A stretch of DNA of 64,000 bases from a virus. Position numbers and translations under genes: made by a program. This document shows, piece after piece, positions 2,169 to 64,000 of this stretch; the stretch's first letter is position 1, and every line of letters begins with the position of its first letter. Below the pieces are notes generated by a model. That model did not search any database, was not told the origin of the DNA, and saw only the letters and a program-made list of their open reading frames with translations. The DNA is taken from positions 2,699-66,698 of IMG/VR virus record IMGVR_UViG_3300017991_005544. One strand, given 5' to 3'.

Positions 2169-4169
2169 ATGGCAAAGTACGATCCACTACACAATCAATG
2201 CAAGGTCCTCTACGGTACTGCCAAGGTACATACGTCAAATCCATTTCCAGCAGCGGGGCAGATCAAGGTATTGTATAAGCCCGATGACGATTCTCCTGAA
2301 CTTGAATATACTGTCCCGTTCAAGTATCACTGTCCTGGTGGAGATGAAGCCATCAACGGTTCTGAAGCTTTTGCTCCGAATGATGTCGTCGTGGTTGAGT
2401 GTAATGAGAACAATGTGCCACAAAGAGTTGTCGGTCACTATGATGGTGCTGAGCGTTGCAATATCGTCTATGCAGTTGCCTGGTTTGATAGCAATTACAT
2501 AAATTTCAAGTGGAACGATACAAACAGGTGGTTTAACTGTTGGGATGCTGTCAGAGATAAATATTATGAGTACGGCATCGTGAGCCATTTTAATGGCTTT
2601 GCCGGTACTGTTTCAATCCAATATGCCGATGGGTATCCATACAGGTGTGTCATTTGCCTTGAATTGATGCCAGCCTACCTGGGAGATTTGGCAGGATATT
2701 ATTTGCTTGGTCGGTATTGCTTTATTGATGTGATCATTGACCCTGATGATAACTATTCCATGACTCATGAGGTTTACTTCTACGGGTTGTATAAGCTTTA
2801 CGATGATTACCCTTATTGGGAAACCTTTCAGAATTATGGTTGTACCGGACAGTCAAAACCACTAGAGGCAGAGGACGGTTCGCTTGATGGTGATTGTGGG
2901 ATCGCCTATGCTTGTTATGGTTCTAAATCATATAACTGTGAATGCACCTGTACTCAGAAGGTTGCTGGTTTTTATACTGAAGGTCATTATTGCCCATGCG
3001 ACTGTACGGAGGCAGACTGTTGCTGGACAAAAGATGATTATTGTACCAATGCGGGTTGTGGTTGGTCTCCTTTATTTGGTTGTTATGGACCGGAAGGTTA
3101 TTCTGGTTGCTGTTGTCTTCAGGAAGTCTGCGCCCAATCCCCTGGGGAAACAACATGCAGCCAAAATGTGGACTGTGAGAACTGTGAGACAGAACCCCTG
3201 CCTGTCGGGACTTATGCAACGGCCAATGAAACCGAAATGCCAAAATGTATTTTAGCTGGTGCTCGTTATTATGCCAATACAGATACCACATACGGAATTT
3301 ACGTAGGGGTTGATTGCGGAGAAGCAGTGTGCTGTCCAGACGGTTGTGGTACGCCTTCATGCATCGTCGATACACAGCATAAAGATATCCTTGCTTGCGT
3401 ATTTCAGTTGACTCGTGATTTTGGTGTTTGGGAAAAAGACATAGATGAGGTCGCAGCAGATCCAGCATGGAACGGGTTATCTGATATTGGTTCGCCTAGC
3501 AGTACAATTTCTACTGACCCTGCTGATTCATGGTATACGTACCTTTGGCCTGGTTCTGCCCCAGATGGTTGTACTCGTGGGCGGAGTTATCGGTATCAAT
3601 TTATACCCCAAAAAATGATTGGAGACGGCAAGTGGATCTATAGATACGTCAGAACAGTGGTAGAAGATTTAGAAGACCCCCCAGGGTGTGAATGCACTGA
3701 CACAGATATTGACTCTCAGGATAATGTTTTGGTTGGATTTACATACAATTTTCCTGGGATACCAGACGGAGAAGACGAAGACAGTGGTGATTGGAAGATA
3801 TTGCAAAACATGCTAAAAGGGAGTCTGGAGTCATATGTAATTTCGTGGGTATATGGATCTAGCATGGATCACTTTAGAAGCACCAGCCTTTTAGGCGAAA
3901 ATCTTCCATTGGTAAGTGGTCTTGCTGCTCCGCTTGATTACCCAGATAGAACAGGCGTTTTGATATCTGACATAAACAATAGCGGCTTCACAATCAGCAC
4001 TTACGGTGGCAAGGTCAGGGCTTATTCCGGTTTTGAAACGGTCGTACAGGATGAGGTAACTAAGGTTCAGCCTGTAGGGGAACATCTTTACGAATGGACC
4101 GTTGGTTTTGCAAATCCCAATGTTCTTCAACGAAACATCTGTTTAATGGTTTATCAACCGCCAACATAA
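2169..4169 (+). CDS. Large Cys-rich protein, possible tail/receptor-binding protein
   Basis: GGAGG RBS; central Cys-rich tract; AT-richer than neighbours. Confidence 0.5.
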   Translation: MAKYDPLHNQCKVLYGTAKVHTSNPFPAAGQIKVLYKPDDDSPELEYTVPFKYHCPGGDEAINGSEAFAPNDVVVVECNENNVPQRVVGHYDGAERCNIVYAVAWFDSNYINFKWNDTNRWFNCWDAVRDKYYEYGIVSHFNGFAGTVSIQYADGYPYRCVICLELMPAYLGDLAGYYLLGRYCFIDVIIDPDDNYSMTHEVYFYGLYKLYDDYPYWETFQNYGCTGQSKPLEAEDGSLDGDCGIAYACYGSKSYNCECTCTQKVAGFYTEGHYCPCDCTEADCCWTKDDYCTNAGCGWSPLFGCYGPEGYSGCCCLQEVCAQSPGETTCSQNVDCENCETEPLPVGTYATANETEMPKCILAGARYYANTDTTYGIYVGVDCGEAVCCPDGCGTPSCIVDTQHKDILACVFQLTRDFGVWEKDIDEVAADPAWNGLSDIGSPSSTISTDPADSWYTYLWPGSAPDGCTRGRSYRYQFIPQKMIGDGKWIYRYVRTVVEDLEDPPGCECTDTDIDSQDNVLVGFTYNFPGIPDGEDEDSGDWKILQNMLKGSLESYVISWVYGSSMDHFRSTSLLGENLPLVSGLAAPLDYPDRTGVLISDINNSGFTISTYGGKVRAYSGFETVVQDEVTKVQPVGEHLYEWTVGFANPNVLQRNICLMVYQPPT

Positions 4170-4934: not shown

Positions 4935-5218
4935 TGGCGAGAAAGAATCTCATTGGCTTCATAAAGAATACCTCCAAGAGGGTTGCGATCGACAACGTGC
5001 AGGATGCCACGATCTTCTCGGTCAATGTCGACGGGACCTATGACCTTAGGCTCAGGAGCGGGGCCATCAAGAAGAACGCAATCAACTTGAGGCCCGAAGT
5101 GAATTTTCACATCGGAGACGTTGTGAACATCAGTATGGTTTCTGGTACGAAAGAAACGGCCAAGATTCTTGGCAGGAGTACGAGAAGGCAGAAAGGACAA
5201 GTCATCGTATACGTGTAG
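4931..5218 (+). CDS. Small beta-rich (OB-like) phage protein
   Basis: AGGAGG RBS; ATGA overlap. Confidence 0.45.
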   Translation: MMARKNLIGFIKNTSKRVAIDNVQDATIFSVNVDGTYDLRLRSGAIKKNAINLRPEVNFHIGDVVNISMVSGTKETAKILGRSTRRQKGQVIVYV

Positions 5219-5229
5219 CGAGGTACGTC

Positions 5230-6195
5230 ATGAAAGTAGAACTGATCAATTTGCCATTCAGCCAGGTTTACCACCGGCGGCTCGACCCGCCTCTGTTTTT
5301 GCTTCAGCTGGCCCCCATCCTGGAGGGCCAGGGATTCAGCGTCAGGATCAACGACCTGAATGGGCTCGACAAGAGCCAGTGGTGCTTCGGATACTGTGTT
5401 GCCTACGTCCTGTACGTCGACAACGACAAGCATGGTGATTCCAAAAGGATCGCCACCACCTGCCGTGCCGTGAACGACACGGCCATCATTGTGGCCTGCG
5501 GTTCGGGCCCTTCGAAGAACGTGACCCGGTTCGTCAACGATGATCTCTTCGACGTGGTCATCCGGGGCGAACCCGAGATCGCTATCAACAACTTCCTCTA
5601 CGATTACCTCAACCCCAAGAAACAGGACCGGCCAAAGGTCTACAAGGCAGAAGTCAAGGATATCAATACCTTACCTCTCCCCTCGAGAAACTTGGTTGAC
5701 ATGAATGGCTATTACCGTAAACTGGACGGTAAGAAGGCCACGATGGTCCTGGGGAGCCGGGGAAGCCCATACCGGCCCACCTGGATGTGCCAGGGGCACA
5801 AGGTCTTCACGACCACCAGGATCATGAACGAGATCAACTCGATCCACACGGCCTACGGGGTCCGTGGCTTTTTCTTTGGAGACGAGGCCTTCTGTTTCGA
5901 CAAGCAACGGTCCCTCAGACTTGGGCAACTCCTCAACGAGAAAGGGTACATCTTCGGATTCAATGACAATATCGATAACGTCGATATTGAGCATTACAAG
6001 AGGCTGAGCGAACTCGGTTGCAAGGAGATCATGCTCAACCTCTTTGGCAGTAAGAGCACCTCGTTTGTCGACTCGATGCGTTCCAAGATCGAGGAAGACA
6101 CGGGCATCAGGGTAATACTTCGGAAGGAATCGAAGTACAGTAAGTCCCACGGTAAGAGGGAGGTGACACATGGAAGTAAGGGTTCCGAGTCTTGA
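5230..6195 (+). CDS. Cobalamin-binding/radical-SAM-like protein lacking the CxxxCxxC motif
   Basis: B12-binding-like N-terminus, DVVIRGEPE, LPLPSR; SRGSPYRPTWM in place of SRGCPxxCxFC. Confidence 0.7.
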   Translation: MKVELINLPFSQVYHRRLDPPLFLLQLAPILEGQGFSVRINDLNGLDKSQWCFGYCVAYVLYVDNDKHGDSKRIATTCRAVNDTAIIVACGSGPSKNVTRFVNDDLFDVVIRGEPEIAINNFLYDYLNPKKQDRPKVYKAEVKDINTLPLPSRNLVDMNGYYRKLDGKKATMVLGSRGSPYRPTWMCQGHKVFTTTRIMNEINSIHTAYGVRGFFFGDEAFCFDKQRSLRLGQLLNEKGYIFGFNDNIDNVDIEHYKRLSELGCKEIMLNLFGSKSTSFVDSMRSKIEEDTGIRVILRKESKYSKSHGKREVTHGSKGSES

Positions 6196-31785: not shown

Positions 31786-34713
31786 CTAACTACAATCACT
31801 ATATCCGCAGTTCCTACAGGTTGAGCATCCGCCCTGTTGCTCGATGGGACCTTGGCACTCTGGGCATGCCCCCCTGATAGGAGTCTGCTGTACAGGGTGT
31901 TCCTTCATGAAGACGCTTTCCAGGACTTGAGCGACTCCATCGGCACAGGATAATACCTTGTTGTTTCCCATTCCTCTTGGAAGATGACAACTGATTCCTC
32001 GAAGCTGTTTCACGATATGTGACGGGTGGACCCCGCTCCTCAGAGCGAGAGAGACCATTCTTCCCATGGCTTCGCTTTGGCTCGATGCACATCCTCCTGC
32101 TTTACCGACCCTTGTGAAAACTTCGAATGGCTTCCCATTGCCATTCCAGTTGATCGTGACGTACATGGTCCCACAGCTTGTCTCCACCTTTTGCGTCAAG
32201 CCACTGAGGGCCTGAGGTCTGACCTGAGGTTCGTGGGTATCCTCAGTATCGGGCTTTTTGATTTCAATCCCCTTCTCCAACACTTGTTCCTCCCGGCTCT
32301 TGTCCCGATAGATTGTGATTCCCTTACATCCTGCATTGTAAGCCGTCCTGTATGCATTGATAACATCCTCTACAGTTGAGTCACGAGTCATGTTTATCGT
32401 TTTGCTTACCGAATTACACGTGTAGGCCTGGAATGCCGCCTGCATGTTGATGTGCCACTCCGGGTCAATCTCATGCGAAGTTTTGAAGATGGACCTGATT
32501 TTTCGGTATGTGTCTCCACCATCAGGTAGCATGGGCAAATAACCGGCTTCGATTATTTTCTGTTTGAGTTCCGGCCTTTCAATCCATTTGACCCGGTCAA
32601 GGTGCTCGACAAGATCTTGGTTGAAATACTCAAACTCGGCCCCGTCAAGAACATTCATCTTCCTGTACGCAAGTGCGAACAAAGGCTCGATGCCGCTCGA
32701 GCATCCGGCAATCATACTGATGGTCCCGGTGGGCGCAATGGTCGTGAGGGTGGCATTCCTTCTCTTGTTGATCATGAGCTTGTCTGCATCATACAGTTCG
32801 AACGCATCGTACTGGTTTGCAAGCTCTTCACTCCTGATGATTGCCCTTGTCTTGATCGTTTCCATTACGGTGCAGGCCAGCTTGACGGCCCCTTGACTCT
32901 CGTACGGTATCCCCATCTTGATCAGAGCATCGGCCCATCCCATGATACCGATGCCAATCTTCCTGGTCCTCATGGTTGTGTCTTTGATGGTTCTGGTAGG
33001 AAACACATTCACATCGATGACGGAGTCGAGAAAATCGACAATTGTCTCGACAGTACTTTGCAGGTGACCGAAGTTGATTTTGCCATCATCCATGATGAAC
33101 CGGGTGAGATTGATACTGGCAAGGTTGCAGGATTCAAACGGCAGGAGAGGCTGTTCTCCGCAGGGATTTGTTGCTTCAATTTCTCCCAGGGGAGCCAGTG
33201 CCGTGTTGTTGATCCTGTCGATGAAGATGATGCCTGGATCTCCCGTGGTCCAGGCTTCTGTGGCGATCATCTCGAAGACCGTCTTGGCATCGAGTTCGGT
33301 TTCGACTTGCTTGGTCCTGGGGTTGATGATCTTGTATGTGGTGCCCCGCTCCAGGGCTTCCATGAATTCATCCGTGATTGCAACCGACGTGTTGAAATTG
33401 TTGAAACTCTTGCCGTCGTGCTTGCATTTGATGAAATCCAGGATGTCGGGGTGATCGCAATTATGAACAAAAACCCCATTGGCTGAAAAATTATGGTATT
33501 CAGCTAATGAAATATCATAAACCTCTTTAGCGACCCCAAATTCCTCAACCTTAATGACTCTATGATTACTTATCCGACGGTTTTTGTTCCATGGTGTTTT
33601 ACCGAGTTTAGCCTTTGCCATTTTTTCTTTCCATGCTAAGGCCTTGTCAACACCATAAACTTCTTCAAGTGTTTTTCCTTTTCTCTTTGATGATTCTATT
33701 TCTCTAGCTACGTTGAGATTGTCATTGTGTTTTTTTGCATGATCTGATCTAGTCAAAACTTCTATGTTTGATGGATCATTATCAAGATAATCTTCATTTT
33801 TGTGATGAGCATTTAACTCGTAAGAGACATTGAATCCAAGGATGTCTCTAGCAATAGCTCTATGCTCAAAAATAGCCTTGCCTCCGCTGCACTTTATCAG
33901 CCTTCTATGGTGCTTGCCATGTTTTCTTATGCTCTTAAAAAAGGCCATCAGACTATCGCCAAGTATCAATGATGATGCTTCCTTGTATTTCCCATTGCTC
34001 AACATGAATCTGTGATCGGGAGTACAATCGACAAAATCATCATTATCAAACCAAACCCTCACCATTTTCCTATTTGTATCGGACACAAAAATCCTTTTGG
34101 CCTTTGTAATGTGGATTTCTCTAGTGTTTGGATCGCACGAATAAACATAAGGCTGTTGTCCGACCAAATCTTTTATTTTGATTTTGCCATTTATTGTGTT
34201 GATCAAGGTTTCGCCATCAAGGCAACGCAAAACAGCCATGTTGGCTCCCCGTCGTTTTCCTCCCTGTTTGATCGTTTCGGTCGTGGCGTTGAAGACCTGC
34301 ATGAAACTAAGGGGGCCCGAAGAGATTCCATGGGTCTTCTTCACGATGTCCCCGGCAGGCCGGAGCCTCGAGAATGAAAAGCCGGTTCCGCCACCGGCCT
34401 TCTGGACCAGGGCCTGGGTCTTGGCCGCATCCATGATGCCGGTGATCGAATCAGGGATCGGGATCACAAAGCAGGCACTGAGCATACCGAGGTCAGTTCC
34501 GGCATTCATCAGGGTCGGACTGTTCGGCAGGAACTCGAGGTTTCGCATTGCCTCAAGAAACCGATCCATATCTGTCCCGTTTCTGGCTACAGACTTCGCA
34601 ACCCGGAGGAACATTTGATCAGGATCTTCGACGATTTCTCCATCATCGTTTCTCAAGAGGTATCGTCGTCCAAGAACACGAAGGGCCGTGTCACTGAGGA
34701 TGGTGTGTGACAT
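31786..34713 (-). CDS. nrdJ: Class II (AdoCbl-dependent) ribonucleotide reductase containing an intein
   Basis: FLPNSPTLMNAG, GGGTG, TNPCGEQ, TIAPTGT, SSGIEP, C-terminal TSCPD/Zn domain. Confidence 0.95.
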   Translation of the reverse strand: MSHTILSDTALRVLGRRYLLRNDDGEIVEDPDQMFLRVAKSVARNGTDMDRFLEAMRNLEFLPNSPTLMNAGTDLGMLSACFVIPIPDSITGIMDAAKTQALVQKAGGGTGFSFSRLRPAGDIVKKTHGISSGPLSFMQVFNATTETIKQGGKRRGANMAVLRCLDGETLINTINGKIKIKDLVGQQPYVYSCDPNTREIHITKAKRIFVSDTNRKMVRVWFDNDDFVDCTPDHRFMLSNGKYKEASSLILGDSLMAFFKSIRKHGKHHRRLIKCSGGKAIFEHRAIARDILGFNVSYELNAHHKNEDYLDNDPSNIEVLTRSDHAKKHNDNLNVAREIESSKRKGKTLEEVYGVDKALAWKEKMAKAKLGKTPWNKNRRISNHRVIKVEEFGVAKEVYDISLAEYHNFSANGVFVHNCDHPDILDFIKCKHDGKSFNNFNTSVAITDEFMEALERGTTYKIINPRTKQVETELDAKTVFEMIATEAWTTGDPGIIFIDRINNTALAPLGEIEATNPCGEQPLLPFESCNLASINLTRFIMDDGKINFGHLQSTVETIVDFLDSVIDVNVFPTRTIKDTTMRTRKIGIGIMGWADALIKMGIPYESQGAVKLACTVMETIKTRAIIRSEELANQYDAFELYDADKLMINKRRNATLTTIAPTGTISMIAGCSSGIEPLFALAYRKMNVLDGAEFEYFNQDLVEHLDRVKWIERPELKQKIIEAGYLPMLPDGGDTYRKIRSIFKTSHEIDPEWHINMQAAFQAYTCNSVSKTINMTRDSTVEDVINAYRTAYNAGCKGITIYRDKSREEQVLEKGIEIKKPDTEDTHEPQVRPQALSGLTQKVETSCGTMYVTINWNGNGKPFEVFTRVGKAGGCASSQSEAMGRMVSLALRSGVHPSHIVKQLRGISCHLPRGMGNNKVLSCADGVAQVLESVFMKEHPVQQTPIRGACPECQGPIEQQGGCSTCRNCGYSDCS
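33460..34224 (-). mobile_element. Intein (255 aa) with HNH endonuclease in nrdJ
   Basis: AVLR|CLDGET...TPDH...FVHN|CDHPD; internal HHKNEDYLDNDPSN; AT-rich. Confidence 0.92.
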
Positions 34714-49473: not shown

Positions 49474-50208
49474 TTACTTGCGAAGGTAGAGGGTGATGGC
49501 GGTCTCGAGTTTCCCGTCCTGCTCGAGAGCTTCCCTGGCACATCTGTGGTATCGTTCCTTGTCGATATCGGACGGCTTCCATCCGAGAGACAAGATTGCC
49601 TTCTTCAGTTCACGAAGCATCTCCTCGACCTTGGGGTCGGGTTCGTCTTGCTTGATCTGGACGACCGGCTTGGCCCGGCGTTTCTTCGGTATCCTGATGG
49701 GCAGGTCCTGACCGTCGCTCATCACTCCGAATCCTTGACCGGCCCTGACGGCATCCATCATGGTCAGGTTGCTCTCGTACGGATCTCCTGGCTCGATCAT
49801 GTTGGGCAACCCTTCGAAGCCCGGTTCAGCCGGTTCCCCTTTGGCGAGTTTCTCGAGGTTGTGCTCGTCGACCGTGACCGATAGGTAAGCATCGTCGTGA
49901 TCCCAACAGGCTCCCACGACAAAGTCAGTTGACTTGTGATTGATGTAGAGCATCCAGTAGCCCCGGCCTGCCACGAACAAGGTGTCGCCTGCATCCGTGA
50001 TGCCGTTGGGCCTCATCGCAACCCTGCCCTCAAGCTCCAGCTTCCAGTCACTGGTCCAGATGAAGTCGAGACTCACTCGATGGCAAATGGCCGTTTTGGT
50101 CAGGAGCATGTCCTCGAGCAACTCGATCACCCTGGGCTCGATCGCTTCCTTCAGGTATCGTTTGAAGTCGTCGTGGAAATCACTGTGGTTTCCGTTTGCT
50201 TCCTGCAT
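49474..50208 (-). CDS. Hypothetical protein with RuvA-C-like helical tail
   Basis: KKAILSLGWKPSDI...ETAITLYLR. Confidence 0.45.
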   Translation of the reverse strand: MQEANGNHSDFHDDFKRYLKEAIEPRVIELLEDMLLTKTAICHRVSLDFIWTSDWKLELEGRVAMRPNGITDAGDTLFVAGRGYWMLYINHKSTDFVVGACWDHDDAYLSVTVDEHNLEKLAKGEPAEPGFEGLPNMIEPGDPYESNLTMMDAVRAGQGFGVMSDGQDLPIRIPKKRRAKPVVQIKQDEPDPKVEEMLRELKKAILSLGWKPSDIDKERYHRCAREALEQDGKLETAITLYLRK

Positions 50209-50626
50209 GCTGGATTCCTTTCTTACGCCTGGCCTTGAGGAGTTCCTGTTCGATTAGCTCGTGGATTTCTTCGAATCGTTCACGCCACCCTTCCATCCAC
50301 CAGCCGAGAAAACCGTGCTTGCAATTGAAGTCGGCACAGTAGACCCGCTCCATGCACTTGGAGCAACCCTGGTAGGAGCCTCGTTCCGCCACGATGGCGG
50401 GATCCCGCTCCCACTCTTTGCACTGGTAGCCGAGACACATGAAGCAGGGAGGACGTTCATCACAGAGGGCACAGATAGGTTGGTGAAGGTCAACCCACTC
50501 TTTCACGGCTTCCATCCGGTTGGCGATACAGAACGGGCAGTCTGTCGTGGAGGAACACTCGATCTCGGCACCGCTGACCACGTGGAAACGCTGGCCGTCA
50601 CGAATACGGGTTACAAACTTTGGCAT
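50180..50626 (-). CDS. Cys-rich hypothetical protein
   Basis: AAGGAG RBS; multiple CxxC. Confidence 0.5.
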   Translation of the reverse strand: MPKFVTRIRDGQRFHVVSGAEIECSSTTDCPFCIANRMEAVKEWVDLHQPICALCDERPPCFMCLGYQCKEWERDPAIVAERGSYQGCSKCMERVYCADFNCKHGFLGWWMEGWRERFEEIHELIEQELLKARRKKGIQHAGSKRKPQ

Positions 50627-50639
50627 CTGTTTCTCCTTG

Positions 50640-51040
50640 CAAGGATACTGCCCATTCTGACAGATCCTCCTGGATCCTGTCAAGGGGTTTCTGGGCAGAC
50701 CCATGTTTCCAGGTCCTGGACCGGCCCGGAGGCCGGGTCCTGAGAATCCCTTGGCAGGGGGTCCTCCCGGCTCCCGGAGCCGGGTTTTTCTTGAGATGCG
50801 TTTTGTCAACCATTGACGTTGTCAATTATTTACATTGTCAATTATTGACAAACCCCGGTTTCGGGGCCCAGGCCCCGTTCCCGGCCCGGCAATTATTTCG
50901 ATCATTTCCCCCCTACGGGGGGAAATAATCTCAATATATAACGGTACGTATAGAGCGTAGCTCTTCCCCGTAGGGGAAAGGGGGCCGGAAAATTTTTTGC
51001 CCCGAATCCTCTGTGAGTCAGTTTGTAAATTATTTACCAT
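50640..51040. promoter_or_regulatory. Palindrome-dense non-coding region (candidate origin or operator region)
   Basis: Multiple GC hairpins; repeated TTGTCAATTATT and TTGAC/GTCAA motifs. Confidence 0.4.
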
Positions 51041-51049
51041 TTCGTTTTC

Positions 51050-51224
51050 CTCGGGTTCGGGTGTCTTGGGGACCTTGACTCGCTTTCACCAAGTGGGTTT
51101 CTTCCGCCTTTTGACTCGCTTTCACTCATTGGGTTTCTTCAGCCTGATGACTCGCTTTCACAGCTTGGGTTTCTTGCCGGTTATGACTCGCTTTCGTTCG
51201 ATGGGTTTCTTTGAGCCAGTGGCC
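51050..51224 (-). repeat. TIGR-like dual-repeat guide array, downstream of the gene (about 5 units)
   Basis: TGACTCGCTT at 51076, 51112, 51148, 51184 alternating with TGGGTTTCTT; exact 36-nt period. Confidence 0.9.
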
Positions 51225-51242
51225 GTGGGGCCGGGCCCCGCA

Positions 51243-52187
51243 TTACGCAACCTTGACGGTTGGTTCTACCTGGGGCCAACCATAATCCTCTGGCTTGTCG
51301 ATATCGATGTGGCCGAGGTGTTCCTGAACATACGGCTCACTCACGGGCAACCCTTTGAGCTTCCGGGCCACAATCCAGTAGTGGCAAAGGAACCGCTTCA
51401 TCATGACCCGGATGGCATCATCGTGCCGATGGCCTTTCATTGTATCCTTCCAGGCCTTTTCTACGAGTAGCCCATTATTGAGTCGGGTCTTGACTACCAG
51501 TTCGCTCTTGGAGGTCTTCTCTTTCCTCTGATCATAAATGTCCCGGTAAGGGCTCCGGCTCTTGATTATGGAAATAGCCGATCTGTACAGGGCGGTACGG
51601 AGCTTTTTATTTCCTCCTCCCGCCTTGCCTTTTTCGTATCGACTGTGAGAGGGCTTGTCGTACCCGACATACTGCCATAACGACGAAGGGTGATCTGCCT
51701 TCTCGACATTAATGTAGACCGCCAGGTAAGCTGCCGTCCCAGGCCCGAGGCTCCTGACGCACATGGTAGCATCGATGATGGGGTCGTTGTGCTTCACCTT
51801 CATGAGTCTCTTTTCGATCTCTTTTTCAGCCTCTTTTTCTTTCTTGCTGATTTTTTTCAGTATCTTCTCCAGCACTTCAATATCTTGAGGATCGAGGTCA
51901 TCGGTCTCTCGTTTGAAGGCGAGCAGCTGATTCGAAATCTTGATCCGTAGCTTCAGGTGTTGCTCCAGGATATCGATGGCCTGCTTGAGGTACTTCATCC
52001 ATTCGGGCCGCACACGCTTGATCCCGTGTATCTCCATGTGCTCGACAGGATGGAGGAGCCGGTAGTTTTCATCGTCGTAACCGCCTCCTTTAGCCTTGGG
52101 CAATGGATCTCGGTGGGTGTCGATCAAACTTGGGTCGCCGGTGTAACCTTTCTTCCTTTTCAGATCTGTTTTTCTTCCCATCTTCAT
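51243..52187 (-). CDS. TasH-like protein: N-terminal HNH + Nop/IS110-like RNA-binding domain
   Basis: DTHR...GGGYDDENYRLL...H...HG; LGPGTAA...SSLWQYVG; GNKKLRTALY; HDDAIRVMMKRFL. Confidence 0.85.
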   Translation of the reverse strand: MKMGRKTDLKRKKGYTGDPSLIDTHRDPLPKAKGGGYDDENYRLLHPVEHMEIHGIKRVRPEWMKYLKQAIDILEQHLKLRIKISNQLLAFKRETDDLDPQDIEVLEKILKKISKKEKEAEKEIEKRLMKVKHNDPIIDATMCVRSLGPGTAAYLAVYINVEKADHPSSLWQYVGYDKPSHSRYEKGKAGGGNKKLRTALYRSAISIIKSRSPYRDIYDQRKEKTSKSELVVKTRLNNGLLVEKAWKDTMKGHRHDDAIRVMMKRFLCHYWIVARKLKGLPVSEPYVQEHLGHIDIDKPEDYGWPQVEPTVKVA

Positions 52188-52544
52188 ACTCCTTTCGTGT
52201 TGTGGGTTTCTTCTACTTTGTGACTCGCTTTCACCAAGTGGGTTTCTTGCGTCCCTTGACTCGCTTCGAAACCGTGGGTTTCTTCCATTCCTTGACTCGC
52301 TTACGATCGATGGGTTTCTTTACCTCTCTGACTCGCTTGCACGCAATGGGTTTCTTCTGCTGTTTGACTCGCTTCGATGTAATGGGTTTCTTCTGCTTTT
52401 TGGCTCGCTTCTCCTTTTTGAGTTTCTTGTAACGAGTGACTCGCTTTCGAGTTGTGGGTTTCTTAGGCCTTCTGACTCACTTTTGCTTTTTGGGTTTCTT
52501 GCAACGACTGATTCGCTTTCTTGTTGTGGGTTTCTTACCTCCTT
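52188..52544 (-). repeat. TIGR-like dual-repeat guide array, upstream of the gene (about 10 units)
   Basis: TGACTCGCTT-like every 36 nt from 52221 to 52509; TGGGTTTCTT-like every 36 nt from 52203 to 52527; variable 8-nt spacers. Confidence 0.92.
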
Positions 52545-52639
52545 TTGTTCCACGAACTGAAGACCTCCTCCAGCACTCCCAACACCAGGATGCCAAAGAT
52601 GATCCAACCAAACACTTTCATGATCAGTATGATGGTCAT
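52535..52639 (-). CDS. Small single-TM peptide
   Basis: MTIILIMKVFGWIIFGILVLGVLEEVFSSWNKRR*, AGGAG RBS; stop overlaps the first array repeat. Confidence 0.45.
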   Translation of the reverse strand: MTIILIMKVFGWIIFGILVLGVLEEVFSSWNKRR

Positions 52640-52732
52640 GGCTTTTCTCCTCTAAATAATTCAAAGACGCTGTCTATTGCGATGATCAAGACCACGACGG
52701 CAAAAATCTTCACGATGATCATTTTGCCCTCC

Positions 52733-53314
52733 TTACCATTTGGTTCCGACCAGAACGGTGTGCATGTTGATCCCGACGTTCTGTTCCGATAGACCTGAGT
52801 TCGACAGGTGAGTCAGCCGGTACTCGAGCAGGACGGATCGTTTGCTCGAGGCCTGGAACCTGGCCCCGGCCCCAACCGAGGGGGTGAAGTTCAGTGGCAG
52901 GCCCATCCCTTCCACCGACATGCTGTTCCACGAGATGCCTGCCATTAGCTTCAGGTATGGCGAGAAACCCTTGACCAGCTGATACGGAAACGTCAGGACC
53001 GGCTGAGCCACCAGCAGCAGGCCGTTGCCCTCGTTGGTCCTGTAGCCCAACATGATCTCGCCCTCCAGGACGGCCCACAGGTCTCCTGCCAGGTGTCTGC
53101 CGTACAGGTCGGTGCTCAACGTCGAGAGCCATACCTCGACCTTCTCGGTGCTGGCGAACAATCCGGCAGGCTGAATGGCGAACCCCGTCATGGTCGTGAT
53201 CTCGGCTCCCTCGGCAGGATCCAGCCAGTCGGCCACGTGACCGCAGCAGGTCTGCACCGTCGTCATGACGACCACAAACATGATGACGAACAGGATGTAT
53301 TCATACCACTTCAT
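52733..53314 (-). CDS. PagL-like lipid A 3-O-deacylase (outer-membrane beta-barrel)
   Basis: Signal peptide; EYRLTHLSNSGL...NVGIN motif; C-terminal Trp. Confidence 0.75.
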   Translation of the reverse strand: MKWYEYILFVIMFVVVMTTVQTCCGHVADWLDPAEGAEITTMTGFAIQPAGLFASTEKVEVWLSTLSTDLYGRHLAGDLWAVLEGEIMLGYRTNEGNGLLLVAQPVLTFPYQLVKGFSPYLKLMAGISWNSMSVEGMGLPLNFTPSVGAGARFQASSKRSVLLEYRLTHLSNSGLSEQNVGINMHTVLVGTKW

Positions 53315-53543
53315 CGTCCTTCTCCTTCATCCTCATGATGGTTTGGTGTAGCCGGGCGGAATGCAGCATGACCTCGAGAGTGTTGTGGGCGAGCTTGACG
53401 TTCTCCTTCACCAGGTCGAGCCCTATCCAGTCTAAATCCCGTACCGCCGACTGATAGATCTCGAGCGACTGGATCGTGCCGGTCATGCGGGAGAAGTCGT
53501 TCAAGATCTCTTTGAGTTCGCCTTTCCAGTTGCGGTTGCTCAT
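53301..53543 (-). CDS. Hypothetical protein
   Basis: GGAGG RBS; MSNRNWK... Confidence 0.45.
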   Translation of the reverse strand: MSNRNWKGELKEILNDFSRMTGTIQSLEIYQSAVRDLDWIGLDLVKENVKLAHNTLEVMLHSARLHQTIMRMKEKDDEVV

Positions 53544-53764: not shown

Positions 53765-53836
53765 TGGTAGGGGGAGGGAGGAATTGAACCTCCACGCCGG
53801 TCATGACCCTCGCTCTACCGTTGAGCTACTCCCCCT
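53765..53836 (-). tRNA. Atypical tRNA-like gene (8-bp acceptor stem, shortened anticodon arm)
   Basis: AGGGGGAG/CTCCCCCT+ACCA, D-arm GCTC/GAGC, T-arm GGAGG-TTCAATT-CCTCC. Confidence 0.75.
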
Positions 53837-54719
53837 ATAACAGTATTGCTCCGCTGTATTGCCAATCGTACCGGAGGTGACCGTCCGGGAAAAAGATCAA
53901 CTGCCTGAGTTCGTCATTTCTGGTCGGGTCGATCGTGAGACAATCCGAGAGACAGACGTTCTGCCCGTGGTAGTCGTACACGATGGCCCCGTGCATCAGT
54001 TCCATCAGGCGGGTGCCTTCATAATCAAGCTCGTTTTTGATTTCTTCTATCTGGGAAGGGTCGAGGGCATGATCGGCAACAAATCGGCTGATGTTGTAGT
54101 CCTTGCAAACCTCGGGTCTCTTGATGTTGCGGATCGTGAGTTGCTCGACCTTGTGGTCCTGGCACCACTGGATCATGTTCTCGACATCACCGACGTGCTC
54201 GATGTAGCCCTTGACCAACATGCAGGTGATCCTGACTGAAAAGCCCCTGTCGTGAAGTCGATCCACAACCTTGCCGAGGGGGTAGCCCATCCCATAGATC
54301 TCTGCGTTCATGGTTGGCATCCAATGAACAACCGAGAGGCAGATGGTCGTGAGGCCGTCGTGGCTCCAGACTCCCATGAATTCATCATAGTCTTTTTCGT
54401 GGGTATGGAACCGGATCCCGTTGGTCTGGAGTTCAACGAACGGGAAGTTCCAGGCCTTGAGTCTTCCGACGGTACGGCTGATCTCGACAGGGTGCAGGGT
54501 AGGCTCGCCCTTGCCGGTCAACAAGACGGTCGAGACCCCGCAGTCCTTTGCGTAGTCGCAGGCCGATTTGAACCGGCGGAAATATTGTGGGTGAGTGCCT
54601 TCGGTATCCATGCCGTAGTCCCGGATGCCTTCGTCGTGCGTCATCTTGGAGACACAAAACGGGCACCTGGCGTTACACTTGTGGTTGCCGATCACCATCG
54701 AGAGGGTCTGGATCTTCAT
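53835..54719 (-). CDS. Radical SAM protein
   Basis: CNARCPFC, TGKGEPTL, QTNG. Confidence 0.88.
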   Translation of the reverse strand: MKIQTLSMVIGNHKCNARCPFCVSKMTHDEGIRDYGMDTEGTHPQYFRRFKSACDYAKDCGVSTVLLTGKGEPTLHPVEISRTVGRLKAWNFPFVELQTNGIRFHTHEKDYDEFMGVWSHDGLTTICLSVVHWMPTMNAEIYGMGYPLGKVVDRLHDRGFSVRITCMLVKGYIEHVGDVENMIQWCQDHKVEQLTIRNIKRPEVCKDYNISRFVADHALDPSQIEEIKNELDYEGTRLMELMHGAIVYDYHGQNVCLSDCLTIDPTRNDELRQLIFFPDGHLRYDWQYSGAILL

Positions 54720-62768: not shown

Positions 62769-63073
62769 CTCGATTTCATGTATTCTGAGGTCTTGACCGT
62801 ATCTGTCAAAACAGTTTAGTCTAATAGGATAAGCACAGCAGAATCCCGATGATGTGACAACAAGAGAAAGGGGTCGTTGAGGGCGACTGAGTCTTGTCTT
62901 ATTTTAGCGGGTTTGGGATAATCATCACGACGCTCTAATTTGACATGGCGACTGAGGTGACCTGATGGCGGCTGTGGAAATTCAAGGTATCTGAGGTCGA
63001 CGAGAGGGTCCGCGATGGTGGAAGGACGAATCTCCATCAGAAGAAGGCGAGTGGGAGACCTAAGGAATTGGCT

Positions 63074-64000
63074 ATGACCAGGAGTGCGAAATACAAGTTT
63101 TCCGGGCACCAGACGTTCCCCTTTCGATACGGATGGCTCGAGAAAGGGGTTAGGGGTGTCGAGGAGCAGAAAGATCTCTTCTTTCTCAATGACGCGCTCG
63201 TAACGCTCGGTGTCGGCAAGAACATGGTGGATAGCATTCGGCACTGGTGCCAGGTAGCTCAGCTGGTCGAGCCCGACCAGGATGCCGGAAGAAACGCGTT
63301 TCGGAACCTGCAGCCGACAGCCATTGCGCGGAAGTTGCTCCTCGATAGAGCTTGGGATCCGTTCCTGGAGGACGATGCGTCTCTGTGGCTGATCCATTGG
63401 TTGATCGCTACGAACCCGTTGATCGGAACGGCCTGGCAGCTCCTTTTTGGCAAATACAATCGACCGGATTTCACGCGTAGGGAGATCACCAATTACGTTC
63501 ACGATTTCGCGGCGAAGGAAGGTCTCAAGGTCAGCGACTCGGTGATTGCACGTGATATCGACTGCCTCATCCGCACCTACGTGGTGGGAGGCGGATCCAA
63601 GAAACTGACTGTAGCCGAGGAGTCCTTCGCCTGCCCTCTGCTTCAGCTCAACCTTATCCAGCCGTCACCCGACGGGGAACTGTACCGCTTCGCCATCGGG
63701 CCGAAGCCCTCTTTGCCGGCTCCCGTGTTTGCCTATGCCCTGCATGAGCACTTCACGCGAAGGACGGACCGAACAGAGACAATGAGCATCCAGGAGTGTC
63801 TGTACGGCGAAGGCAGCCCTGGACAAGTATTCAAGCTTGATGAGAACAGCCTCATCGAGTATGTGGAGGTTCTTGAGGATACCATGGGGGGAAGCGTTGT
63901 CCTGGATGAGACAGCCGGTCTAAAACAGATCTACCGCCGACAGAGCTTCGATCAGGTCAAGACCCTCGACAGATACTATCGGAGAAGCAGCCAGAGATGA
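63074..64000 (+). CDS. DUF4007 family protein (SspB-like), host side
   Basis: FSGHQTF..RYGWLEKG, LGVGKNMVDSIRHW, DPFLED..SLWLIHW, DETAGL. Confidence 0.88.
   Translation: MTRSAKYKFSGHQTFPFRYGWLEKGVRGVEEQKDLFFLNDALVTLGVGKNMVDSIRHWCQVAQLVEPDQDAGRNAFRNLQPTAIARKLLLDRAWDPFLEDDASLWLIHWLIATNPLIGTAWQLLFGKYNRPDFTRREITNYVHDFAAKEGLKVSDSVIARDIDCLIRTYVVGGGSKKLTVAEESFACPLLQLNLIQPSPDGELYRFAIGPKPSLPAPVFAYALHEHFTRRTDRTETMSIQECLYGEGSPGQVFKLDENSLIEYVEVLEDTMGGSVVLDETAGLKQIYRRQSFDQVKTLDRYYRRSSQR

Follow-up and report, generated by a model that had tools for sequence, protein, structure and literature searches.

A tasH gene between two dual-repeat TIGR arrays in a tailed-phage-like genome

Introduction

The viral DNA analysed here (the window) is a stretch of 64,000 nucleotides (nt), positions 2,699 to 66,698 of IMG/VR record IMGVR_UViG_3300017991_005544, and it includes a gene for a protein of 314 amino acids (aa) that has short, regularly spaced repeats on both sides. 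The question raised by this locus is whether gene and repeats together form an RNA-guided system of the TIGR-Tas family, as a first-pass annotation made from the letters had proposed, or a transposase gene of the IS110 family with flanking repeats. The TIGR-Tas family was described in 2025 (Faure et al., PMC12045711) and has since been the subject of several papers on structure and applications. As its members are compact RNA-guided DNA nucleases that are free of a protospacer-adjacent motif (PAM) and of current genome-editing interest, the correct annotation call matters.

Our answer is that the locus is very probably a dual-repeat TIGR-TasH system on a tailed-phage-like genome, the kind of system found as SpTIGR-TasH in Salicola phage CGphi29. 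It is directly supported by the anatomy of the gene and arrays, the match of the protein to TasH in both sequence and fold, the conservation of residues and the covariation of the edge repeat.

The two arrays

On the minus strand between 50700 and 52900, two 10-nt repeats, AAGAAACCCA and AAGCGAGTCA, are found in alternation, separated by 8-nt spacers and with an exact period of 36 nt. They make up two arrays, identified by repeat search, Tandem Repeats Finder (TRF) and shuffles:

52185..52554, minus strand: upstream TIGR array, 10 units (U1-U10) of 36 nt
51040..51229, minus strand: downstream TIGR array, 5 units (D1-D5)

With up to one mismatch allowed, the whole window has 24 copies of AAGAAACCCA on its minus strand and 3 on its plus strand, and 14 of the 24 lie inside the two arrays in perfect 36-nt phase (13 exact and one with one mismatch). 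The corresponding numbers for AAGCGAGTCA were 17 and 2, with 13 of the 17 in the arrays (10 exact and 3 with one mismatch). A composite pattern (repeat, N8, repeat; up to 2 mismatches) had 13 matches, every one within the arrays, and when the pattern was sought in 100 dinucleotide-preserving shuffles the mean was 0.00 and the maximum 0. TRF reported a period of 36 at 52188..52536 (9.7 copies) and 51076..51211 (3.8 copies). The alternating repeats, described in the first-pass annotation as about 10 units upstream and about 5 downstream of the gene, are thus real.

Ten upstream and five downstream units are in register, and every spacer is exactly 8 nt long, with ..CA before it and AAG.. after it. 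Each unit consists of the 3' half of an edge repeat, spacer A, the loop repeat AAGAAACCCA, spacer B and the 5' half of the edge repeat AAGCGAGTCA. Only 12 of the 15 units are canonical, so that the earlier count of about 14-15 guides holds for units and is too high for canonical ones. The other three, U1, U10 and D5, lie at array boundaries and are flanked by a degenerate repeat. The 5' edge of U1 is degenerate (CGTGGAACAA), leaving it with no proper 5' edge, U10 terminates in a truncated edge, AAGGAGTATG, and D1 opens with a 5'-truncated edge (..GGCCA), while in D5 both the loop (AAGACACCCG, 2 mismatches) and the 3' edge (GAAAACGAAA) are degenerate. Truncated or degenerate edges are therefore present at all four array ends.

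This anatomy agrees with section 4 of PMC12045711, which defines TIGR arrays as two alternating repeats of 8-12 nt, named edge and loop, with short spacers; where that paper deals with array ends, degenerate boundary repeats and truncated edges are given as normal. The truncated-edge rule makes AAGCGAGTCA the edge and AAGAAACCCA the loop, and the predicted tigRNA is therefore 5'-AGUCA-N8-AAGAAACCCA-N8-AAGCG-3'. This prediction fits the A published for nucleotide 5 of the SpTasH tigRNA. A scan of 49500..53500 against Rfam returned nothing close to a gathering score.

The DNA that borders the arrays has features of its own. Directly before the upstream array (52535..52722, minus strand) are two tiny hydrophobic open reading frames (ORFs) of 28 and 34 aa. 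The second of these ends in a TAA stop codon that overlaps the first loop repeat, and the final letters of this ORF form what would be spacer A of U1, AAGGAGGT. After the downstream array, 50803..51040 is non-coding and as RNA has strong predicted structure (z -3.46) that includes a 14-bp hairpin, and at 50803..50850 a 16-nt palindrome, TTGTCAATTATTGACA, is present in three tandem copies that could be an operator or promoter cluster.

The protein encoded between the arrays

The ORF between the arrays, 51243..52187 on the minus strand, was confirmed as 314 aa long. A start at the second ATG (52181) is 7 nt past an AAGGAG sequence and yields the 312-aa form recorded in the protein database. Residues are numbered here from the 314-aa form unless otherwise indicated. 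The features of the gene and its product, all on the minus strand, are as follows:

51243..52181: tasH coding sequence, 312 aa from the second ATG (314 aa from 52187), stop codon TAA at 51245..51243 (ORF call, homology and model)
52189..52194: AAGGAG, putative Shine-Dalgarno sequence of tasH, from the terminal truncated edge
52020..52136: HNH (beta-beta-alpha-metal) nuclease domain, approximately residues 18-56 (PDB match, alignment and model)
51792..52004: coiled-coil region with two long helices, model residues 60-90 and 98-130 (model and Foldseek)
51246..51782: Nop-type RNA-binding domain including W246 and H253, and a C-terminal loop with Y286 and H293 (PDB match, alignment and Foldseek)

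An HNH-type motif, D23-T-H25-R ... N41 ... H50 ... H54-G, was found in the protein, and the codons of H50, Y286 and H293 are at 52040..52038, 51332..51330 and 51311..51309, respectively. A sequence search of the PDB matched residues 16-305 to TasH (21kl_A and 7 further entries) with an E-value of 4.2e-75, and also matched TaTasR (9mty_A) at 5.4e-24. The AlphaFold2 model has a predicted local distance difference test score (pLDDT) of 93 and a predicted template modelling score (pTM) of 0.87, and contains a beta-beta-alpha element at the N-terminus. When this model was compared with the PDB using Foldseek, the top nine rows were TasH chains with template modelling scores (TMq) of 0.68-0.88, the best being 9w04_B from the complex of TasH, tigRNA and double-stranded DNA (0.88). 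The two long helices of the model superpose on the TasH coiled coil, which is the dimerisation domain in SpTasH. The HNH plus Nop architecture read from the sequence is therefore borne out, and the profile and structure comparison that had been proposed as a check gave TasH as the best match by both routes.

Relatives of the protein were collected from 5.8 billion proteins, among which there were 59 matches at an E-value of up to 0.001, the closest non-self match being 55 % identical. The family alignment was made from the protein and 41 of the 58 non-self matches, with 14, hand-picked down the list, and three distant ones excluded.

Functional residues compared with SpTasH

SpTasH, translated from the Salicola phage CGphi29 record, is identical to the protein at 133 of 300 aligned residues (44 %). 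The SpTasH residues named in the papers were mapped by alignment; the residue called H182 in the paper is H183 by our count. H54, replaced by Ala in the nuclease-dead SpTasH (preprint 10.64898/2026.08.11.744272, section 7), corresponds to H50. Y289 and H296, which process the pre-tigRNA (PMC13421893, section 15; preprint 10.64898/2026.09.09.750476, section 10), correspond to Y286 and H293. The contacts to the DNA backbone, R213, R218 and K225, are R211, R215 and K222, and the stacking pair W249/H256 is W246/H253. All of these are identical, making 8 of 8 for the catalytic, processing, DNA-contact and stacking residues.

Conservation in the wider family was examined in the alignment of 42 sequences. 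At least 90 % of the 42 have the nuclease His (H48 in the 312-aa numbering), and all have the processing Tyr (Y284 in the same numbering). For the processing His, invariance is limited to the 11 closest members; in the wider alignment, where the column shifts, its conservation is under 90 %. In the model the loop that carries Y286 and H293 has a pLDDT of 57, in line with a flexible loop.

Related loci and covariation of the edge repeat

A profile scan of IMG/VR based on the family alignment found 56 loci with a TasH relative; a search of viral contigs using the single TasH protein in place of the alignment recovered no relative. Loci L001-L052 were examined, and removal of 7 duplicates and 2 loci with short flanks left 43 non-redundant loci. 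As TRF missed many of the related arrays, including that of Salicola phage, arrays were located with a period-36 detector together with a motif-based unit finder that uses consensus patterns and allows up to 2 mismatches, by which divergent arrays are perhaps undercounted. The same type of array was found in 42 of the 43 loci. It was downstream of the gene only in 21, on both sides in 18, upstream only in 3 and absent from one. A gene with arrays on both sides is therefore nothing unusual in this clade, and such an arrangement has already been reported (TIGRFinder preprint, section 5).

Positions 4 and 7 of the edge consensus in 46 related arrays, which share ancestry and do not represent 46 independent events, are C-G in 24, T-A in 15 and T-T in 7; C-A or T-G was never seen. 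This covariation agrees with the closing pair between the two edge halves that has been published (legend of Fig. 6G). In the locus itself a Watson-Crick pair between positions 7 and 4 is possible in 12 of the 15 units. The closing pair of U2 (52473..52518) is A-U and not G-C, because the preceding edge has G7>A (AAGCGAATCA) and the following edge has C4>T (AAGTGAGTCA). This is a compensatory change spread over two adjacent repeat copies, and for this reason selection may, tentatively, be keeping the closing pair of each tigRNA.

Among prokaryotes, TasH relatives were found only in 3 contigs of metagenome-assembled genomes, from three different phyla. The supplement of Faure et al. 2025 was searched with three peptides. 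Table S1 (sheet ProteinInfo, 'all TIGR systems') has four rows with a protein identical at 311 of 312 residues, the single difference being Leu>Arg. The locus is thus part of the published catalogue, with no individual description of it so far: the family was published in 2025, the protein is in its Table S1, and both the phage context and two-sided arrays are in print. Sequencing runs containing the locus include three DNA runs that hold the whole stretch, and in these the sole difference is 51967 A>C (Leu>Arg in TasH), the same as in the catalogue entries, with identical arrays. These three runs may be the source of this DNA and hence are not independent. No RNA run holding the locus was among the sequencing runs listed.

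Two observations concern other repeats of this kind. In L046, a related viral contig, two more arrays with a 36-nt period lie downstream of the TasH gene (3797..4153 and 5118..5740), made from quite a different repeat (GGGG...TGCAGCTTC-like). In runs X1 and X2, which gave loose ends near 52224..52445, short contigs of low depth contain other TIGR-like repeats with different letters, so related TIGR arrays co-occur in those samples.

Predicted mechanism and comparison with known systems

The steps below are those expected by homology. Transcription of the minus strand would run from the upstream array across tasH into the downstream array, and TasH would dimerise via its coiled coil. Its Nop domains would bind the repeat ends that flank each spacer (..CA before, AAG.. 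after), and the C-terminal loop with Tyr286 and His293 would cut the precursor in mid-edge (AAGCG|AGUCA), giving 36-nt tigRNAs of the sequence predicted above. Their ends would be closed by G7-C4 and U8-G3 pairs, and about 12 of the 15 units would serve as canonical guides. The two 8-nt spacers would pair with opposite strands of a 16-bp target in a PAM-free manner, and each HNH domain, through His50, would nick one strand to produce a double-strand break. The system would most likely serve in competition with other mobile elements or in attacks on the host's DNA; this role, like PAM-independent cleavage, is predicted from experiments with SpTasH and TaTasR.

The closest known system is SpTIGR-TasH (Salicola phage CGphi29; PMC12045711; structures 9W02-9W04, 9VZX and 21KL), which has in common with this locus the HNH, coiled-coil and Nop architecture, a phage location, 36-nt units and spacers of 8 plus 8 nt; section 6 of PMC12045711 gives 16 nt of spacer in total for SpTIGR. 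The Salicola phage array is made up of AAGACAACCA and AAGCGAG[C/T]CA with 8-nt spacers, so the edge is nearly the same as AAGCGAGTCA and the loop is similar to AAGAAACCCA. However, the array there is downstream only, whereas here there are arrays on both sides.

TaTasR (Thermoproteota, PDB 9MTY) is more distant (TMq 0.52). It shares the Nop domain and coiled coil, and the dual-repeat logic of 36-nt tigRNAs with tandem spacers directed to opposite strands, published for TaTasR, would apply here as well. It differs in having a RuvC nuclease and 9-nt spacers in place of HNH and 8-nt spacers, and TaTasR has been reported not to catalyse tigRNA processing itself. The box C/D small ribonucleoproteins of archaea and eukaryotes (Nop5/Nop56/58) are likened to these systems in the papers, as in both a Nop domain sits on a coiled-coil dimer and box C/D-like elements flank two guide segments. 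Here, unlike in those particles, the target would be DNA and not RNA, there is no fibrillarin or L7Ae partner and no kink-turn, and the effector would be a nuclease. No Nop5 chain was among the Foldseek rows shown for the TasH model.

Several observations weigh against identification of the locus as a working system of the SpTIGR-TasH kind. Only 12 of all 22 named SpTasH residues are identical in the protein. At the coiled-coil interface, R103, S105, F109 and R120 are replaced by D, Q, V and K (0 of 4 identical), and around the tigRNA ends only 4 of 10 residues are the same, the differences being K167D, K233L, H268R, R286S, K293H and R305Y. The first His of the HNH motif, in DTHR, is Asp in SpTasH (DVDR), and the make-up of the active site is therefore not identical. 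An N-terminal segment of about 8 residues that is present in SpTasH and most relatives is missing. On the minus strand at the locus, no sigma-70-like or canonical promoter was recognised upstream of the array, and no intrinsic terminator was recognised after the downstream array; a terminator is described as typical where PMC12045711 deals with TIGR arrays, and in this the locus differs from that of SpTIGR-TasH. Expression, 36-nt RNAs, RNA binding and cleavage are, at this locus, predictions from homology. To these points is added the outcome of the searches for targets.

Search for guide targets

The first-pass annotation had suggested a search for sites made up of spacer A and reverse-complemented spacer B. 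The search found no target in the contig itself or in 847 kb of related phage DNA, and a natural target was not found for any guide in these, nor for U8 in IMG/VR. Both orders of the half-sites were tried. The natural targets of the TIGR family are said to be not yet determinable (preprint 10.64898/2026.09.09.750476).

For self-targeting, the arrays were masked in the 66,698-base contig, and all 15 guides were compared with it in 8 arrangements, at gaps of 0-2. There were no matches at 0 or 1 mismatch, and the 11 matches at 2 mismatches are at chance level, about 6 being expected by our own arithmetic. The set for cross-targeting consisted of 505 distinct guides (625 units) from this locus, the 56 IMG/VR loci and the Salicola phage locus, and 847,444 bases of related phage DNA, both strands of which were searched. 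The two opposite-strand arrangements gave no exact match. Their matches with one mismatch numbered 25 and 12, compared with 33 and 27 in same-strand controls, and thus show no enrichment. The sole exact match in the set was for spacer A plus spacer B of U5 in the same-strand, non-canonical arrangement. It lies upstream of the TasH gene of a related phage (position 2060 in L018, and 2121 in its duplicate L019) and is probably due to chance, as about 0.3 such matches are expected.

A single guide, U8 (1 of the 15), was also compared with IMG/VR in both opposite-strand orders, and matched 25 and 15 stretches, or approximately 19 and 12 when near-identical contigs are not counted. No family of diverged homologous sites was found among them. 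They were mostly in unrelated contigs, consistent with chance for a 16-mer.

Alternative explanations

The locus may encode the same TIGR-TasH ribonucleoprotein and yet have a natural role that is mainly RNA-guided DNA binding, leading to transcriptional repression or a block to replication, and not cutting. We consider this unlikely, though it has support in that SpTasH cuts at a rate of approximately 0.01 per min, with repression of a GFP reporter persisting in the nuclease-dead H54A form (preprint 10.64898/2026.08.11.744272, section 7), and TasA and dead TasR also work as repressors (preprint 10.64898/2026.09.09.750476, discussion). However, His50 and the remainder of the HNH motif are retained, and retention of this His (as H48) among the 42 relatives argues for selection on nuclease activity. 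The lack of any guide match at 0 or 1 mismatch in the phage's own contig also speaks against a binding-only role.

That the locus is a decaying or silent relic of a TIGR-TasH system is improbable. It would account for the degenerate units U1, U10 and D5, for point changes in the upstream edge copies near the 5' end and for the failure to recognise a promoter and terminator. Yet the ORF is intact with 8 of 8 catalytic and DNA-contact residues, 12 units keep exact repeats and the closing pair, one of them by a compensatory change, and degenerate boundary repeats are, as noted above, described as normal for TIGR arrays.

Hardly any probability can be given to an IS110-family transposase gene with flanking repeats. 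The name does have a source. A match to Pfam PF02371 (Transposase_20) was below threshold (E-value 0.023; 15.5 bits, with a cut-off of 21.3), PHROGs assigned the protein to phrog_4285, 'transposase', at 1e-31, and in Foldseek the TasH chains and TasR (9mty_A) were followed by the IS621 recombinase as a distant fold match (TMq 0.45, range 0.44-0.47). The RNA-binding domain is thus distantly related to that of the IS110/IS621 bridge-RNA recombinases. However, the DEDD (RuvC) domain of IS110, reported as lacking in the first-pass annotation, is indeed absent, with no match to PF01548 even at E-values of up to 10, and the N-terminus has an HNH fold. Instead of a single structured bridge RNA and transposon ends there are arrays of minimal guides, the flanks being 36-nt guide arrays and not inverted or terminal repeats, and the best matches in sequence and structure are to TasH. 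The absent DEDD domain and the TasH matches refute identity as an IS110 transposase. The expectation that annotators would apply this name was partly right: PHROGs does use 'transposase' and many homologues carry PF02371, but the database rows for the protein itself say 'hypothetical protein'.

There is a negligible chance that the periodic repeats result from a repetitive protein-coding region or from a CRISPR array: ORFs do cross parts of the arrays (52320..52664, minus strand, 114 aa; 52103..52432 and 50997..51470, plus strand) because the 36-nt period is 12 codons, but none covers a whole array, two kinds of 10-nt repeat with 8-nt spacers are unlike the 25-36 nt repeats of CRISPR (PMC12045711, section 4), cas genes were not found, and the array anatomy and the conservation of this array type beside TasH in 42 of the 43 related loci exclude both.

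Possible array growth by duplication, and possible self-regulation

The guides of the locus are not all unrelated to one another. In U9 and D4, spacer B is identical and 4 of 8 positions of spacer A are shared (12 of 16 in all), and U2 and U4 share 12 of 16 positions and U5 and U6 share 11 of 16. None of 2000 within-guide shuffles contained two pairs at 12 or more of 16. A 72-nt block taken from the loop repeat of U1 (52536) is identical at 58 of 72 positions to that from the loop repeat of U3 (52464). Most related arrays have no such spacer-sharing pairs. The sharing of positions by the guide pairs, which goes beyond what the shuffles gave, and the identity of the 72-nt blocks suggest that units were duplicated, in part from one array into the other, and then changed by point mutation.

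The last truncated edge of the upstream array (52185..52194), AAGGAGTATG, is AAGCGAGT with a C missing, and supplies the AAGGAG of tasH. The terminal edge repeat would therefore double as the ribosome-binding site of tasH, a function predicted from the sequence. Relatives with upstream arrays have a separate leader of approximately 10-60 nt after the last edge. TasH bound to, or cutting, the final unit would occlude or sever its own ribosome-binding site, and negative feedback would be the result; for intragenic arrays, published work has suggested that tigRNA maturation and Tas translation are linked. Tentatively, and at well under even chances, the locus may record both processes: diversification of the arrays through duplication of 36- or 72-nt blocks, copying between arrays and mutation, with no acquisition machinery, and negative feedback through an edge-derived Shine-Dalgarno sequence.

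Genome context

In the window, 82 ORFs were called, and the 74 of at least 90 aa were scanned with PHROGs and PADLOC. Among the PHROGs matches were DNA polymerase, ribonucleotide reductase, primase, a DnaB-like helicase, a helicase loader, SbcCD-like nuclease subunits and RNA ligase. These genes mark the window as a phage replication module, the contig is classed as a virus record, and the phage context given in the first-pass annotation holds. So does its statement that there are no cas genes in the window, as PADLOC found no Cas effector or adaptation family among the 74 ORFs at E-values of up to 1e-6, and the sole CAS-labelled row was a weak match of an 892-aa helicase to typeIV_DinG (E-value 5.5e-7).

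Just upstream of the locus (52733..53314, minus strand) is a gene for a PagL-like lipid A 3-O-deacylase or outer-membrane beta-barrel protein (PF09411, E-value 8.6e-15), which hints at a Gram-negative host. No tRNA genes were found when these were looked for as a clue to the host.

Three further features of the window were noted:

63068..64000, plus strand, at the contig end: strong match to SspB (PADLOC PDLC02768, E-value 2.5e-87), an Ssp DNA phosphorothioation component in a phage genome
8714..9703, plus strand, and 53835..54719, minus strand: radical-SAM proteins with viperin-like (pVip) PADLOC matches (E-values 1.1e-13 and 9e-08, respectively)
31786..34713, minus strand: ribonucleotide reductase large subunit with an internal HNH-endonuclease-like segment (approximately residues 264-382) that resembles an intein or homing-endonuclease insertion

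Conclusions

The locus is real and was correctly interpreted, and it is a well-preserved phage TIGR-TasH locus that is ordinary for its family. It adds no new kind of system and is a clean natural example that bears on two questions left open in the papers. One is how the arrays gain spacers, and here duplication and divergence are visible. The other is whether tas and array are co-expressed, and here the array runs straight into what would be the ribosome-binding site of tasH.

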